This document shows positions 32,332-39,288 of a stretch of 41,775 bases of DNA, piece after piece. Both the position numbers and the translations under genes were made by a program. Numbering within the stretch: position 1 is the first letter of the stretch; each line of letters starts with the position of its first letter. The stretch spans positions 1 through 41,775 of the IMG/VR virus record IMGVR_UViG_2675903658_000008; one strand, written 5' to 3'. This stretch comes from a virus (lineage: Duplodnaviria > Heunggongvirae > Uroviricota > Caudoviricetes). The notes beneath the pieces were generated by a model. That model did not search any database. It had not been told where the DNA came from and was given only the letters and a program-made list of their open reading frames with translations.

Positions 32332-33633
32332 ATGGCTACTTGGCAACAAGGAATCAACTCAGGCGGCTTTCTTGCTGGTATCGGTGGGCAAAACTCAAAT
32401 GCGCCAAAGGCAAGTGATGTAAGTGAGGCGTTGGCCTATATTCGCCAGAACAACGAAATGGAGCGCTCAGGTCGCAATAACATCGGCCTTCAGGCGTTGC
32501 AGGGTCTTGGTAGTGTCGCTCAAGCATATCAAGCCGCAAAGCAACAGGAAGCGGATGCTGCATTCCAAAAAGAATATGCGGCAGCCATCCAGTCCGGCGA
32601 TCGACAGCAGGTTCGAAATCTGATGACCAAATATCCTGGTCAATTAGAGAAGATTCAGTCTGGTATGAAGTGGGCAGACGAAGACCAGCGCAATTCCATC
32701 GGTACCTTAGCGGCTGGCGCACGCCTTGCGTCATCGTCTCCAGAAGCAATGCAATCATGGCTGCAAAACAACGCCAAGGAACTGACTCGCGTCGGTGTTG
32801 ACCCTAATAACGTTGCTCAGATGTATCAGCAGAATCCTTCAGGATTTGGTGAGTTTGTTGATCACCTTGGAATGGCTGCTCTTGGTCCGATTGATTACTT
32901 CAATGTTCAGGACAAGATGGCTGGTCGTGAGATTGACCGAGGCAGGCTGGCAGAGACAATCCGCAGCAATCAGGCAGGAGAAGCACTAACAGCTCGAGGT
33001 CAGGACATCCAGATACGTGGACAGAACATCAGCGCACAGAATGCTGCTCTTTCCCGAGAAATACAAAGAGCAGAATTACAAGAAAAGGCTCTGGACAGAC
33101 AGATAGCCAGAGAAAGCAATCAGTTAAAGCTTGAAGAGCTAAAACAGAAACAGGCAGATGTTCGGCAAAAGGCTGACATAGCCCGCGCTGACAGGCAGGC
33201 CGCCGCTCAGGGTGCAGTTGATACGTTCAGCACCGCGCTTGATTCTCTCAACGAGATAGAGCAAAGCCCCGGCCTTTCAAAAGCAGTAGGAATTCGCTCA
33301 GCGTTTCCGACAGTTCCTGGCTCTGATGCGGCTAACTTTGAAGCAAGGCTCGACACCTTTAAAGCTCAAACATTCCTTCCTATGGTGCAGTCCCTGAAGG
33401 GTATGGGCGCTCTTTCAGATGCAGAGGGTAAAAAATTATCCGATGCGGTTGGTGCCCTAAGCCCCAAAATGAGTGAAAAGGCTTTTCGTGACTCTATCGG
33501 AAAGATTAGAAATCAGCTTGAAAGCAAGTTGAGCACTGTTAAAAAACAGTTTGATTATCAGGAGCCGGTGCAGAATATGCCAGGGCAACAATCTACTACT
33601 GGCAGTAACTTTTCTTCGCTATGGGGTGATTAA
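32332..33633 (+). CDS. Ejection protein, gp20-like
   Basis: Position and composition; coiled-coil-rich. Confidence 0.6.
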   Translation: MATWQQGINSGGFLAGIGGQNSNAPKASDVSEALAYIRQNNEMERSGRNNIGLQALQGLGSVAQAYQAAKQQEADAAFQKEYAAAIQSGDRQQVRNLMTKYPGQLEKIQSGMKWADEDQRNSIGTLAAGARLASSSPEAMQSWLQNNAKELTRVGVDPNNVAQMYQQNPSGFGEFVDHLGMAALGPIDYFNVQDKMAGREIDRGRLAETIRSNQAGEALTARGQDIQIRGQNISAQNAALSREIQRAELQEKALDRQIARESNQLKLEELKQKQADVRQKADIARADRQAAAQGAVDTFSTALDSLNEIEQSPGLSKAVGIRSAFPTVPGSDAANFEARLDTFKAQTFLPMVQSLKGMGALSDAEGKKLSDAVGALSPKMSEKAFRDSIGKIRNQLESKLSTVKKQFDYQEPVQNMPGQQSTTGSNFSSLWGD

Positions 33634-35630
33634 TGGCTAAAGCATGGAAAGATGTTATCGCCTCTCCACAGTATCAGGCGTTAGCACCAGAACAAAAAGC
33701 GCAGGCTCAGGAGCAATACTTCAATGAAGTCGTTGCCCCGCAAGCCGGAGAAAATGCAGAGCAGGCTAAGCAAGCTTTCTATGCTGCCTATCCATTGCCA
33801 TCTGTGCAGCCAGTGGAGACACAACAACCAGTATCACAGCAACAACCACAGCAAAGTGGATTTATGTCGGATCTTGGTGAAGCCGTGAAAGAAACTGGTC
33901 GCGGACTGGTGCAGGCTGGCGTGAACGTGGCAAACATACCTGCATCAGTTGCCGATGCTGTAACAAGCGCGGCGGCATGGGCTGGCGGTAAACTCGGCAT
34001 TGGCGATGGTACATATCAACCAGCGCCACGAGTAACAACGCAGGGGTTAGAGCAGGACTTTGGCCTTCAGCAAGGCGCGCTCACTCCACAAACGACAGAG
34101 GGAAGGGTATTTGCTGAAGCATTGCCTTACCTCACTCCTGCTGGCGTTGAGAGAGCGGCAGCACAGGCACCAACACTTGCTGGTCGAATTGCTCAGGGGG
34201 CAACTCGCCTTCTAGCAGAAAACGCAGTTGGATCACTTGCTGCAAATAGTGCGAAAGATGATGCGGAAGCACTCGCCACCGATTTAGGCGTTGGCGTTCT
34301 GGCTGGCGGTGCTATTAACGCTGCCGGACGTGGATTAGGTGCTGCTTATCGTGGCGTTCGTGGTGCTATTGCGCCAGAAGCGCAGCAGGCTATCAGATTT
34401 GCAGAGCGTGAAGGAGTTCCTCTGCACACCACAGACCTGTTACAGCCTACTTCCCGCGTCGGAAAAATGGCGCAAACGACAGCAGAAAATATCCCCCTGG
34501 CTGGCACAAGCGGAATGAGAGCAACGCAACAGGAAGCGAGAAGCCAGTTGGTTCAGAGATTTGCTGATAAATTCGGTGAGTATGATCCAGCGGTTGTTAT
34601 TGACAGCCTTAAAGCGAAAACATCAGGAATTCGTCGTGCCGCCGGTAATCGACTGGAGCAGGTTCAGAATGCTATGGCGGGAATAAACATTCAGCCTGCA
34701 AGAGCAATTCAGCAGATTGATACAGAAATATCTAACCTGCAGAAGCTTGGTAAGGTTGCTGATAACGAGACTATTTCAAAACTTCAGTCCTATCGTGATG
34801 AGCTTGTTCGCAATGCTGGTCCTGATGGTCCGGTAAATCTGGATTTGAAGCAATTAAGCGATCTGCGCAGCCAGTTCAGAATGGATGTGAAGGGTGAGCG
34901 ACCAGTGTTACCAAACCGTTCCGATGCTGCCATTCAGCGCGTTTACAAGGCAATGACCGACGATATCAATGGTGCCATTGGTCAGAATCTTGGCAACGAT
35001 ACTCTCCGTAAATATCAGCAGGCCAATGCCGTCTACGCTGACGAAGCGGCGAAACTAAAGAATACCATGCTGAAGAATGTTCTCATGAAAGGCGACCTGA
35101 CGCCGGAAGTTGTCAACAACATGCTATTCAGCAAGAACAAATCGGAAATTAAGACGCTGTATAACTCAGTTGGTCGTGTTGGCAGGGCGCAAATGCGCAA
35201 TGGCATCATTGGAAAGGCGATGGAGAAATCAGGTGGTTCCCCTGATCAGTTCCTTCGACAGCTTAACATCCTGCAAAACCAGACTGGCATCACATTTAAG
35301 GGGCAGGACGCTGCTTATCTGAAAGGATTGAAAAACTACCTGCAATCCACGCAGCAGGCTGCAAAAGCGGCAGTAACAACACCAACAGGGCAGCAAACCA
35401 TCCCGTTCATTATCGGGTATGGGACAGCAATGAACCCGGCGACAACTGGCGCAGCGGTAAGCTACGGACTTCTTACTCGCGCCTATGAGAGCGAACCATT
35501 CAGAAATGCAATGCTCCGAATGGCAAACACACCACGCGGATCGACAGCGTTTGAGAAAGCCATGCAGCAAGCGCAAAAAGCGATTAATGCACTGACGCAG
35601 GGTGCTAAGTCTGATTCGTTGTCAGAATAG
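33633..35630 (+). CDS. Ejection protein, gp16-like
   Basis: 665 aa in gene-16 position. Confidence 0.6.
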   Translation: MAKAWKDVIASPQYQALAPEQKAQAQEQYFNEVVAPQAGENAEQAKQAFYAAYPLPSVQPVETQQPVSQQQPQQSGFMSDLGEAVKETGRGLVQAGVNVANIPASVADAVTSAAAWAGGKLGIGDGTYQPAPRVTTQGLEQDFGLQQGALTPQTTEGRVFAEALPYLTPAGVERAAAQAPTLAGRIAQGATRLLAENAVGSLAANSAKDDAEALATDLGVGVLAGGAINAAGRGLGAAYRGVRGAIAPEAQQAIRFAEREGVPLHTTDLLQPTSRVGKMAQTTAENIPLAGTSGMRATQQEARSQLVQRFADKFGEYDPAVVIDSLKAKTSGIRRAAGNRLEQVQNAMAGINIQPARAIQQIDTEISNLQKLGKVADNETISKLQSYRDELVRNAGPDGPVNLDLKQLSDLRSQFRMDVKGERPVLPNRSDAAIQRVYKAMTDDINGAIGQNLGNDTLRKYQQANAVYADEAAKLKNTMLKNVLMKGDLTPEVVNNMLFSKNKSEIKTLYNSVGRVGRAQMRNGIIGKAMEKSGGSPDQFLRQLNILQNQTGITFKGQDAAYLKGLKNYLQSTQQAAKAAVTTPTGQQTIPFIIGYGTAMNPATTGAAVSYGLLTRAYESEPFRNAMLRMANTPRGSTAFEKAMQQAQKAINALTQGAKSDSLSE

Positions 35631-35720: not shown

Positions 35721-36206
35721 TTATCTGATGTTACTGCTACTGTTGCATGTTACCGCGTTTCCAAATCCTGAATTGCAGTTTGTATATGTGTCAACGCGTG
35801 TTGGGTAAGGTTGAGTTATAACAGGCTGGCGCGCTTTTTGCTCGATCGCTTGCATTGTGTTTACAGCCTGATAATTCAATAAAGCCTGCTGGAATGCTTG
35901 GCTTTGTGCTATTTGTTGGGCTTGTTCTTGGCTTTGTAATTGAACATAAAGATTCTGAAGCTCAAGTCTTGCCTGTGCGTCACTTATCTTGCCTTCATCG
36001 ACACCTTGCCCGAGCATCTTTGCAGCAAGGACATACAGCTTAGGTGTTGGTGCTGATGCCATGCGTGAGTCGTTCTTCACACTGGCATCAAGGCAATTAG
36101 CCATATCGCTAAGCTTTTGATAGCGTTGTTCGCAACTTGCTTGATAGTCACTTACTTTTGCGCACCCAGCCAGCAGAAGCGGGATAATTAACAGTGATTT
36201 TTTCAT
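35721..36206 (-). CDS. Lipoprotein of unknown function (candidate superinfection-exclusion moron)
   Basis: MKKSLLIIPLLLAGC signal peptide with lipobox; AAGGAGAG RBS; Gln-rich coiled coil; P22 sieA position. Confidence 0.65.
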   Translation of the reverse strand: MKKSLLIIPLLLAGCAKVSDYQASCEQRYQKLSDMANCLDASVKNDSRMASAPTPKLYVLAAKMLGQGVDEGKISDAQARLELQNLYVQLQSQEQAQQIAQSQAFQQALLNYQAVNTMQAIEQKARQPVITQPYPTRVDTYTNCNSGFGNAVTCNSSSNIR

Positions 36207-36240
36207 ATAATTAACTCTCCTTAGTTTTGCGCAGGATACC

Positions 36241-36606
36241 ATGAAAAAAGTTAACATTGGAAACGTACCAAAGATGCTCGTTCCGCTCTTTGAGAGCGGT
36301 ACAATTGTGTTTTGTAGAGACTTTCCAGAATGGCAACGCCTGCATCAAAAACTTGGCGTTGACGTGCATGACTCGGACGCCAACGGAGCGTCTCATACAA
36401 TGAGTAGCGAGAATGGTGTTTTGCATGTGATAGGCGTGTTCAATGGCAAACTATCTACTATTGCCCATGAGTGCGCTCACATGGCATTCGATATCTGCTC
36501 AAGGGTAGGTGTTGATGTTGAACCAGGAAGAGCCAACGAGACTTACTGCTACTTAATGAGCAGGCTTGTTGAGTTCTGCGAGCGACATATCAAAAAGCCG
36601 GAGTGA
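36241..36606 (+). CDS. Small HExxH metallopeptidase-like protein (ImmA/IrrE-like motif)
   Basis: TIAHECAHMAF resembles the T-x-A-H-E-x-x-H motif; Glu about 20 aa downstream; divergent from lipoprotein gene. Confidence 0.5.
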   Translation: MKKVNIGNVPKMLVPLFESGTIVFCRDFPEWQRLHQKLGVDVHDSDANGASHTMSSENGVLHVIGVFNGKLSTIAHECAHMAFDICSRVGVDVEPGRANETYCYLMSRLVEFCERHIKKPE

Positions 36607-36619
36607 CCCGGCTTGATTA

Positions 36620-36799
36620 TTACTTTTTGCTGTCTGGAGTTCGCTTATCCAATACCCAGCCATGACCTGGCTTTGTTGTTGGTGGAAGCCTTTCGTTGTC
36701 CTTGACGGTTGCAAAATTGTCTTTCTTACCGCCGCGTGGGCCAACTTCTTGGTATATTCCGCCGTTTTTTCCTGTGTTTTCACCTGGTTTTTTCGCCAT
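36620..36799 (-). CDS. Small Gly/Lys-rich hypothetical protein (59 aa)
   Basis: ATG with GAGGT RBS; TTGACT promoter-like hexamer upstream; highly charged. Confidence 0.45.
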   Translation of the reverse strand: MAKKPGENTGKNGGIYQEVGPRGGKKDNFATVKDNERLPPTTKPGHGWVLDKRTPDSKK

Positions 36800-36880
36800 G
36801 ATATACCTCAACATACACCCGTTATTGGGCGATTAAATATTGATCTCATTTTATAAGTAGTCAATATGGCCCAGGTAAAT

Positions 36881-36915
36881 GCAAAAATTAACCCACCTTC
36901 AGGTGGGTTTTTTGT
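36881..36915. terminator. Bidirectional rho-independent terminator at mnt stop
   Basis: AACCCACC-TTCA-GGTGGGTT hairpin flanked by T-runs on both strands. Confidence 0.55.
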
Positions 36916-37150
36916 ACAAATCCTTCAGCGTATCAAACACCATCTTCTTAACAAGTTCAGACTGCTCATCAGCGATGCGTTCCGCATCGTCTCGATAGCC
37001 TGAAATTTTGGATGGCTTTGATACGGCATCAGTCACTATCTGAACTAATTCTGAATTAAGAGAGCGGCCATTGGATTTGGCTCGCTGTTTTAGTTTTTCC
37101 TTTAATTCGTAAGGTAGCCGCAGATTAAATTGCGGGTCATCTCTTCCCAT
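36899..37150 (-). CDS. mnt: Mnt repressor (ribbon-helix-helix)
   Basis: 83 aa; near-identical to recalled P22 Mnt (RDDP.FN.R.P.E..EKLK.RA..NGRS.NSEL.QIV.DA.SKPS..GYR.DAER.ADEQSELVKKMVFDTLKDLYKK). Confidence 0.85.
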   Translation of the reverse strand: MGRDDPQFNLRLPYELKEKLKQRAKSNGRSLNSELVQIVTDAVSKPSKISGYRDDAERIADEQSELVKKMVFDTLKDLYKKPT

Positions 37151-37296: not shown

Positions 37297-39288
37297 ATGA
37301 CAGACATTACAGCCAATGTTGTAGTGAGTATGCCTTCGCAACTCTTCACTATGGCGCGTTCTTTTAAAGCCGTAGCCAATGGCAAAATTTATATCGGTAA
37401 AATTGACACTGACCCGGTAAATCCTGAAAACCAGATTCAGGTTTATATAGAGAACGAAGACGGTTCTCACGTTCCTGTTTCGCAACCAATCATCATTAAT
37501 GCGGCTGGTTACCCGGTATATAACGGACAGATTGCCAAGTTCGTAACTGTGCAAGGCCATTCGATGGCTGTATATGATGCGTATGGTGCGCAGCAGTTCT
37601 ATTTTCCTAATGTGCTGAAGTATGACCCGGATCAGTTAAGGCAGGAGTTAGCAAGTTCAGGTGATGATCTTGGAGATGCATTAATAGCAGTAAAACAACC
37701 ATTCACCTTGTCAATAAGAAGGACGCAGCATCAAAAAAATGCCGAGCACATTAGTGTTAGTGATTTTGGTGCAAAAGGAGACGGCATAACAGATGATACT
37801 GTAGCAATTCAAAATGCTATTAATGCAGTACCAGAAGGGGCTATACTTGGATTTTATGGTGGTGAATTTGTTTTTGATAAGGTTGAATTGCTTAAGCCAA
37901 TAACATTGGTTGGTGATGCAACGTTAATTCACAACGGATTTAGAATAAAATCTAGCAGAATCCGATCACTTTTATCTGGTGTTCAGAAATGCAAGGATTA
38001 CTCCGAGTCTTCAAGAGCATTTTATTGCTATGCAAATGAAGACCAAAGAGATTATGACGATATTCAGATTTTGTTTAATAGATTTGAAGGTTTCTTTTAC
38101 TCTACGGCATTTGTTGCAAAAAACTATTATTTGGAGAATGACCCTAATTCAAGAACTGTCAAAAATACAAAAGTAATAGGGTGTACATCAGTTGCTCCTG
38201 ATTCTGTAAATGCCGGTCATTTTCAACATATAGGCGTTACAAATGCTGAAACATCGCATAACTCAACTTATGGCGGACAAAATGCAACATCATACAACTT
38301 CATTAACCAGAATGGATTTGTAAGGATTATAGGAAATTATGACCATAACAATAGCTATGGTTCATGTGAGCTTGAGAACTCAATGGTGAGTAACTCAGTC
38401 ATATCATGTAATACGTTTTCGTCATATTTATGGGTGGATGATACAAGTAATGTTACTATTTCTGGAAATACCGTTTCATCAAGGATCAAAGTAACATCGC
38501 AAACTGACGATGTTCATAATATAACCATATCAGCAAATACCACAAAACGGATTACTATAGAGCAATTTGGAGAATCTCCGACAGGTCTGGTATATGGTGC
38601 ATTAATTTCCTGTAACACTATTACTGGCGACAGTGATGGAAGTTCAGACATTTTATGTACGTCACTTGTTACAGGTGAAATTTCATCAAATTATTGTCAT
38701 GGAACAGAAAAAAATATATCAATTGTCCGCCTGGATTCTTCTGATATAACTGTTAGAAACAATAAAGGAAACAAAGGATTACTTACAATAAGTAACGATG
38801 GTGGAAGGATAATTGAATATGGAAATGATTCTATGGTTCTGTCTGGAAGCATAGATAGCAGACATATACATAATTTATTACAGCCAGACACCTCGTATTT
38901 AGATCTACCGGGGAAATATCTGCACGGGACTAAATATACTGGCAGTATCCCCCCCGGTTCCACAGGAACTGTATCACTTCAAATACCATCAGGGGCAAGC
39001 CTTGTTTTCAGGGGTGTTTCTATATGGGTTCTAATTAGAGATGTTAGCAATAACAATATATCGTCATTCAGAATTGATGGTTCATATAGAGTTGTTGGTG
39101 GAAGTGTTGGTCTTAGTTTTGCTGATGCTTATTCGAAACTTGGGGTGGATGCAAACTCTATAACAGTGTCAAACAATAACAGCACTTCTGACAATATCAG
39201 CATAGCAATTAAAAACACAGATTCATCAAAAACCCTTCAGGTTACTGTTATGCCGGAGGTTTCAAGCAGGTTAGGTATTGAGGAATAG
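37297..39288 (+). CDS. Tailspike: P22-type head-binding domain fused to beta-helix receptor-binding/depolymerase domain
   Basis: First ~110 aa match recalled P22/HK620 tailspike N-terminus; [13 protein letters not shown] pectate-lyase-like motif; AT-rich Asn/Ser-rich body. Confidence 0.85.

Follow-up and report, generated by a model that had tools for sequence, protein, structure and literature searches.

What kind of protein is encoded by the small gene that P22-like phages carry after their last ejection-protein gene and before the tailspike gene, and when would it act? The question is raised by the viral record IMGVR_UViG_2675903658_000008, analysed here over its whole stretch of 41,775 nucleotides (the window), which represents an E. 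coli phage or prophage of the P22-like type (Lederbergvirus). The gene, hkcC, is on the plus strand at positions 36241..36606, shows ATG as first and TGA as last codon, and encodes a protein of 121 amino acids; on its two sides are the last of the ejection-protein genes, at 33633-35630, and the tailspike gene, at 37297-39288. An initial annotation of this DNA, made from the sequence, pointed to the residues TIAHECAHMAF, likened the protein to ImmA/IrrE-type peptidases and considered the divergent lipoprotein gene as its possible partner. HkcC is best described as a member of a new, uncurated family of mini Glu-zincins (its product corresponds to PHROG 1365), and its sequence and predicted structure indicate that it is probably a metallohydrolase with peptidase activity. 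With a probability of roughly 0.6, HkcC is a stand-alone cytoplasmic mini Glu-zincin that acts late, as a peptidase cutting a host or phage protein while virions are made and DNA is packaged.

hkcC is a genuine protein-coding gene, accessory in P22-like phages. Its product is 99.2% identical to that of hkcC of HK620 and to that of the P22 open reading frame (ORF); the ORF of the window is the hkcC of P22 and HK620 itself and not a different gene. Counterparts are found in many Salmonella P22-like phages, and the match to PHROG 1365 ("unknown function") shows an E-value of 1.7e-39 over residues 1-121. The ORF carrying TIAHECAHMAF (residues 73-83) is at the place where the initial annotation had put it, and a Shine-Dalgarno AGGA, read from the sequence at 36233..36236 (plus strand), is located 4 nucleotides upstream of its ATG and is also kept in the alignment with P22 and SE1. 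Two HExxH motifs are present in the whole window when it is translated in six frames, which is about the chance expectation, and the case for hkcC therefore rests on conservation. The window copy differs from the P22 copy in five synonymous codons and one non-synonymous codon; this synonymous excess, together with the confident structure prediction, further supports that hkcC is coding.

Although few phages have been studied as well as P22 and HK620, hkcC is still a "hypothetical protein". This is the name of all its homologues in the databases, and the ORF itself is already known as such. It is listed only as a gene of unknown function of the "ant moron" or immI region (PMC2629481, PMC4837284), the literature found on it contains only mentions in genome annotations, and neither the SieA paper nor the P22 deletion study makes a statement on it. 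In the P22 GenBank records AF527608 and AB426868 hkcC is not annotated as a coding sequence; the ORF (1501-1866 of locus L003) is uninterrupted there, with 99% identity. hkcC is overlapped by older annotations of sieA, such as that of UAB_Phi20. With hkcC as query, no family of Pfam, NCBIfam or PADLOC was matched at threshold.

A profile search in a space of 1.84 billion cluster representatives collected 546 representatives of the family at E <= 1e-3, almost all of 105-140 amino acids and nearly all stand-alone proteins. Two sites are conserved. The first is HExxH, formed by H76-E77-C78-A79-H80 (codons 36466..36480, plus strand), with two putative zinc ligands and the putative catalytic base, in helix 71-88. 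The second is N99-E100-T101 (codons 36535..36543, plus strand), where E100 (codon 36538-36540, in the residue context ANET) is the putative third zinc ligand, 20 residues after H80 and at the start of helix 100-116. Both sites are invariant in 18 homologues that show 43-78% identity. In an alignment of 130 representatives, which are 22-44% identical to the query save one close homologue at 74%, only H76, E77, H80 and E100 are invariant columns, and conservation reaches 90% or more at G49, G90 and Y104. HExxH is present in 170 of the 177 retrieved relatives; six of the seven without it look frameshifted or truncated, and P0134 reads HKAAH. The commonest spacing between the second His and the Glu in the family is also 20 residues. 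The HExxH residues that drew attention to this ORF are accordingly kept, and the downstream Glu that had been mentioned as a possible third ligand would be E100, invariant in all 130 diverse representatives. This family-wide invariance and the zincin-like predicted fold support a catalytic or metal-binding behaviour of HExxH and the downstream Glu.

The family occurs in temperate phages and in strictly lytic phages, the latter belonging to Autographiviridae and Schitoviridae. ST64T orf-129, epsilon34 gp70, L Orf129 and ST104 ORF47 are paralogues of hkcC with 38-40% identity; orf-129 and gp70, annotated as hypothetical, differ from hkcC in being located before the small terminase gene and not in the ant-moron region. 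SE1, ST160 and UAB_Phi20 carry both hkcC and the orf-129 type (about 38% identical), and a second copy, of the orf-129 type, was looked for within the window and not found. In longer members no informative domain fusion was seen; their additional parts are low-complexity tails, basic or coiled. A subgroup of three members (P0094, P0180 and P0181, of 272-285 amino acids) shows an N-terminal extension of about 165 amino acids with no recognisable domain, and in a locus of this subgroup (L104, 5001-5819) the gene that follows is similar to peptidases of the HslV family (PHROG 1040).

The AlphaFold2 model of HkcC, built from the 18-sequence alignment, shows a predicted local distance difference test (pLDDT) of 89.1 and a predicted template modelling score (pTM) of 0.83. 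The predicted elements are strands 11-13 and 21-25, helix 28-37, strands 49-56 and 59-66, and helices 71-88 and 100-116, in the order b-b-a-b-b-a(HExxH)-a(E): HExxH is on helix 71-88, E100 is the first residue of helix 100-116, and the protein ends five residues past this last helix. Zincins have a sheet with a backing helix, an active-site helix and then a glutamate helix, and as predicted HkcC shows this layout in minimal form. The features of the Glu-zincin clan MA(E) present in HkcC are HExxH on a helix, Glu on the next helix, and an N-terminal sheet with a backing helix and an edge strand before the active-site helix; a mini-zincin layout for comparison is given in PMC3890501. Against viral predicted structures, Foldseek gave 26 matches at E <= 1e-3, with template modelling (TM) scores up to 0.83, all of them small phage proteins, mostly "uncharacterized" and a few auto-named "SprT-like" or "Metalloprotease". 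Against the PDB, Foldseek with the HkcC model gave nothing significant, and a profile of the close homologues had no match among PDB sequences. The broad family profile matched only zinc metalloproteases there: myroilysin at a marginal E = 0.009 and, at E > 0.1, BMP1/tolloid and peptidyl-Lys metalloendopeptidase. The match of HkcC and its family to solved zincins is weak but recurrent.

Among these proteases, the thermolysin type (clan MA(E), M4) resembles HkcC in showing HExxH and then N-E on the next helix with a 20-residue spacing. A phmmer alignment with thermolysin-type neutral proteases pairs HExxH with HExxH and the GRANET of HkcC with GALNEA, although it is non-significant (E = 0.09). 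Thermolysin is secreted and, with its large subdomains at both termini, reaches 316 residues, whereas HkcC is made up of 121 residues and shows no signal peptide. In size and content the HkcC family is analogous both to the minigluzincins proabylysin and projannalysin (about 105-110 amino acids) and to the mini-zincin Acel_2062 (PDB 3e11, 114 amino acids; PMC3890501); in neither case is homology demonstrable, and no close structural match of HkcC to the minigluzincin structures 4JIU or 4JIX was found.

The likeness to ImmA/IrrE suggests another function. ImmA cleaves ImmR, and as an anti-repressor peptidase of this type HkcC would cleave Mnt, Arc or C2 to switch immunity. PF06114 has no match in the query and five relatives even at E <= 1-10, and it is not among the 25 most frequently matched of the 49 families found with the 130 members. 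In Foldseek, viral models named IrrE show poor fold overlap with HkcC (TM 0.26-0.41, E about 0.03-0.07), in contrast to family members and proteins named SprT-like (TM 0.5-0.8). A paired XRE repressor is a feature of ImmA/IrrE (M78, COG2856) and of CapP, but not of HkcC: no XRE or helix-turn-helix repressor adjoins hkcC, whose neighbours are the lipoprotein gene, orf59a and, on the opposite strand, the gene of the ribbon-helix-helix protein Mnt. Even mnt was not detected in some of 80 viral contigs that contain 98-100% identical hkcC (these loci are near-identical only and uninformative on distant contexts). Other relatives are located beside terminase genes or belong to Autographiviridae and Schitoviridae, which are strictly lytic and, as is established for these groups, have no lysogeny repressor. 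The M78 resemblance proposed by the initial annotation is not supported by these results, and a repressor protease of the ImmA type is very unlikely.

The genomic context of the relatives points instead to the late genes. A terminase gene is within about 2.6 kb of the family gene in 14 of the 15 informative contexts. The four paralogues orf-129, gp70, L Orf129 and ST104 ORF47 are between the lysis genes and the gene of the small terminase subunit (TerS). mEp044 shows the order lysis, family gene, TerS, large terminase subunit (TerL); Providencia phage Kokobel2 shows the family gene upstream of, and separated from, lysis and TerL; the Autographiviridae RSJ2 and Axy09 show TerL, lysis and family gene; and in N4-like phages the family gene is in a cluster divergent from TerS and TerL. 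Metagenomic phages show six further arrangements: TerS-like, family gene, TerL and portal, with overlapping ORFs; a gene for 161 amino acids, family gene, TerL and portal; HNH, TerL and family gene, with the portal further on; family gene, two genes, TerL and a P22-type portal; lysis, ASCH, family gene, Sf6-type TerS and TerL; and Tad2-like and family gene, with TerL further on. This terminase synteny points to a late or packaging-linked role of the family. In two loci of unrelated metagenomic phages (L098, 2197-4512, and L100, 4512-6693) the frame of the family gene overlaps TerL by 17-20 nucleotides, and L098 shows a further overlap, of 4 nucleotides, with the TerS-like gene upstream; such overlaps suggest that translation of the family gene is coupled to that of the packaging genes. 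In a third such locus, L102 (3738-5357), the family gene begins 19 bp after TerL. L010 (622-2637) and L011 (2085-6460) share a neighbourhood of ParB_N-domain proteins and an ABC-like ATPase of about 215 amino acids, and L011 also contains a thioredoxin gene and, immediately upstream of the family gene, the Tad2-like (PF11195) gene.

It is a tentative proposal that hkcC and its relatives form an unrecognised, widespread family of minimal Glu-zincin peptidases (about 105-125 amino acids) tied to the packaging or late module. If this were true, the family may free the DNA of obstructing proteins or protein adducts ahead of packaging, or else process a packaging or virion component, or disarm a host immunity by which terminase or portal is sensed. 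A module considered well understood, even in P22, would then gain a conserved enzyme that is new to it. Packaging-linked or SprT-like roles, as well as counter-defence, are the more specific possibilities for HkcC.

As a DNA-associated protease of the SprT/Spartan type, HkcC would strip DNA-bound proteins so that replication or headful packaging proceeds. The strong terminase synteny is in line with this role, and SprT-like (PF10263, including E. coli SprT/YggI, Spartan and Wss1) is the only curated family that was repeatedly matched, always below threshold: in 32 of the 130 members, with a best E = 1e-4 and below the gathering score of 25.6 bits. Some structural neighbours are auto-named SprT-like (TM 0.54-0.72), the longer members of the family show Lys/Arg-rich C-terminal tails, and Wss1 and Spartan themselves are classed as minigluzincins (PMC4559962). 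However, the matches whose scores were inspected reach 13-16 bits, centred on the HExxH helix and covering little beyond it, PF10263 has no match with the hkcC query, and hhalign of the family profile with E. coli SprT gives a probability of 4.8%. The third ligand is His in SprT-like proteins and would be Glu in HkcC, in which neither a C-terminal zinc ribbon nor a DNA-binding domain is apparent. A basic tail is absent from HkcC, and isoelectric points of 6.4 for HkcC and, as a median, 6.0 for the family show no basic character of the core domain. Literature on SprT-like phage proteins was found only as computational annotations of other, larger proteins. Membership of the HkcC family in SprT-like is not established, and a SprT/Spartan function of HkcC is unlikely.

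As a counter-defence or host-takeover protease, HkcC would cut a protein that serves the bacterium in immunity or housekeeping, such as a sensor that responds to late proteins like terminase or portal. hkcC is accessory and located in moron hot spots, the family is found in both lytic and temperate phages, and one relative adjoins the Tad2-like gene mentioned above. Moreover, the diverged paralogues that reside together in SE1, ST160 and UAB_Phi20 are what would be expected of proteins with different targets. This support is purely circumstantial: no member is a known anti-defence protein, PADLOC and literature searches were negative, and the anti-defence genes known so far are mostly expressed early rather than late. 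Such a role is conceivable but doubtful.

The late timing that the preferred mini Glu-zincin reading gives to HkcC comes from the transcription of the region. hkcC has the orientation of the late genes. The scan found neither a sigma-70-like plus-strand promoter for hkcC nor a plus-strand terminator between the ejection-protein gene and hkcC, and in P22 tailspike expression needs transcription that passes through this region; for these reasons hkcC is probably transcribed by read-through of the late operon. A perfect TATAAT at 36206-36211 (plus strand), located 30 bp before hkcC and overlapping the start codon of the lipoprotein gene, was rejected as its promoter, as it shows no -35 or TG element and is outside the conserved hkcC module; it may be fortuitous. 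The ATG codons of hkcC and of the lipoprotein gene are 34 bp apart on opposite strands, in agreement with the spacing of about 35 bp given by the initial annotation, from which overlapping divergent promoters had been deduced. The leftward one has a candidate, since the first 31 nucleotides of hkcC (36241..36271, minus strand) correspond, by the annotation of P22-pbi, to the putative promoter P_sieA; no promoter was found for the rightward one. P22 and SE1 show the same P_sieA sequence as the window, where it would drive the leftward lipoprotein cassette. At the other end, a bidirectional hairpin found by the terminator scan (36595..36614) overlaps the hkcC stop codon; on the minus strand it is t_mnt of P22, annotated in P22-pbi at the last nucleotides of hkcC, and on the plus strand it is a weaker hkcC terminator.

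For the mini Glu-zincin peptidase the following mechanism is proposed. A small beta-sheet with its backing helix (residues 11-66) would be followed by the H76-E77-x-x-H80 helix and by a helix that opens with E100. H76, H80 and E100 would hold Zn2+ and E77 would activate a water molecule, whereas the near-invariant Y104 may aid in stabilising the transition state. A peptide substrate would be bound in extended form along edge strand 59-66, just ahead of the active-site helix. Made late, by the same read-through that is required for the tailspike, HkcC would cleave a protein of the host or of the phage while virions are produced and DNA is packaged. The gene and its family, the invariant residues, the predicted fold, the synteny and the independence from the lipoprotein are results of the analysis; we infer zinc binding, peptidase activity, timing of expression and kind of target. 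The late-acting peptidase is proposed because in nearly all other lineages the family gene adjoins terminase, portal or lysis genes. HExxH is also present in enzymes that are not peptidases, 13 members weakly match a model of aKG-HExxH hydroxylases, and the activity of HkcC is a prediction, so HkcC could instead bind metal without being a peptidase, whether as a hydrolase of another kind or in a zinc-dependent binding or regulatory function, or the ORF could go unexpressed. Family-wide conservation rules out a non-coding ORF, and HExxH plus Glu on a sheet-helix-helix layout is typical of Glu-zincin peptidases; this explanation is quite improbable.

Several points weigh against the proposed late-acting peptidase. 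The ligand roles of H76, H80 and E100 were read from the sequence and the predicted secondary structure, not from the coordinates of the model, and late expression was deduced from gene order and established P22 biology. Scans of the 130 members and of the family consensus against Pfam, NCBIfam and PADLOC gave no family at threshold, and the literature searched contained no biochemical or genetic data on any family member. Regarding synteny, the one exception among the 15 contexts is hkcC itself, which is about 12.5 kb downstream of TerL, in late-operon orientation; several of the contexts belong to related phages, and the signal is partly non-independent. In addition, the lysis-terminase boundary or pre-terminase region is a general hot spot for accessory genes.

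The assignment of hkcC to a large family with invariant H-E-H-E residues, the mini Glu-zincin architecture and the terminase synteny were not found described before in the curated libraries and the searchable literature. hkcC now takes its place among the 546 or more sequence clusters of a family of putative mini zinc-hydrolases, which adjoins terminase genes in several unrelated lineages, and becomes a testable enzyme with clear catalytic-type residues in a phage with tractable genetics. If active, HkcC would be among the smallest stand-alone zincins, and its substrate could expose a new step of late development or a counter-defence. Two tempting annotations are also corrected, because the readings as an ImmA/IrrE-like protease and as a partner of the lipoprotein are not supported.

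The lipoprotein gene (35721..36206, minus strand) encodes 161 amino acids (PHROG 6067) and its product starts with MKKSLLIIPLLLAGC, including a lipobox. A partnership of its product with HkcC would lead to the co-occurrence of both genes in other genomes, as the initial annotation recognised, and both genes were found to assort independently. Among 5,426 complete E. coli genomes, 131 contain hkcC and 186 the lipoprotein gene, and the two are adjacent in only 18. hkcC is always between the ejection-protein gene and the tailspike gene in the 80 viral contigs, and the lipoprotein gene adjoins it in 17. Gally shows the lipoprotein gene with a different ORF replacing hkcC, and SE1 shows hkcC without the lipoprotein gene. 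Leftward of hkcC, between it and the ejection-protein gene, is a slot for which at least eight different contents were seen, among them the lipoprotein gene (17 loci), the gene of P22-type SieA (13), that of a 122-amino-acid protein (12), that of a 51-amino-acid membrane peptide (8), that of an 89-amino-acid protein (8), others, or nothing. The lipoprotein gene is an interchangeable cassette of this sieA slot, not a partner of hkcC, and its place in the slot makes superinfection exclusion a candidate function of the lipoprotein. The slot beside hkcC is a hypervariable cassette site with one shared promoter and 5' leader. Its cassettes (35721-36271 of the window, minus strand, and loci L018-L097) are unrelated small genes, mostly for membrane or secreted proteins, swapped exactly at the start codon, and share the leader, a Shine-Dalgarno AAGGAG and the P_sieA homologue inside hkcC.

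This slot is the home of exclusion genes, and hkcC adjoins it. HkcC could accordingly be a defence or abortive-infection toxin expressed by the prophage, like Lit of prophage e14, an HExxH protease that serves abortive infection, or it could form a superinfection-exclusion pair with the lipoprotein. The independent assortment of both genes speaks against the pair. No promoter of its own was found for hkcC and no matches in PADLOC, members are present in lytic phages, and hhalign with e14 Lit (U49) gives a probability of 4.5% over the HExxH region only, with no sequence relationship found. A Lit-like toxin and a lipoprotein partner are both highly unlikely.

The two divergent genes meet in a segment of 33 bp (36213..36245), which contains both Shine-Dalgarno sequences and looks like a recombination junction of the mosaic, as judged from the megablast edges and from the alignment of P22, SE1 and Gally. 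Megablast homology to P22-like phages starts at about 36213, in the alignment P22 and SE1 are identical to the window from CTCCTTAGTTTTG.GCAGGATACC-ATG onward, and the segment is common to relatives in E. coli genomes that contain only the lipoprotein gene or only hkcC.

Downstream of hkcC, and convergent with it, the window shows an orf59a homologue (36620-36802, minus strand) that encodes 60 amino acids (PHROG 3202), has a weak YjzC-like match (E = 0.0014) and accompanies hkcC in 69 of the 80 viral loci. The mnt repressor gene (36899-37150, minus strand) matches the Pfam families Arc and Repressor_Mnt, and a strong bidirectional terminator hairpin is located between it and the orf59a homologue, at 36890-36909. 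mnt is present without arc or ant, and only 146 bp separate its start from the tailspike ATG. In the window, Mnt would control a Pant-like promoter that reads directly into the tailspike gene and not into an antirepressor gene.
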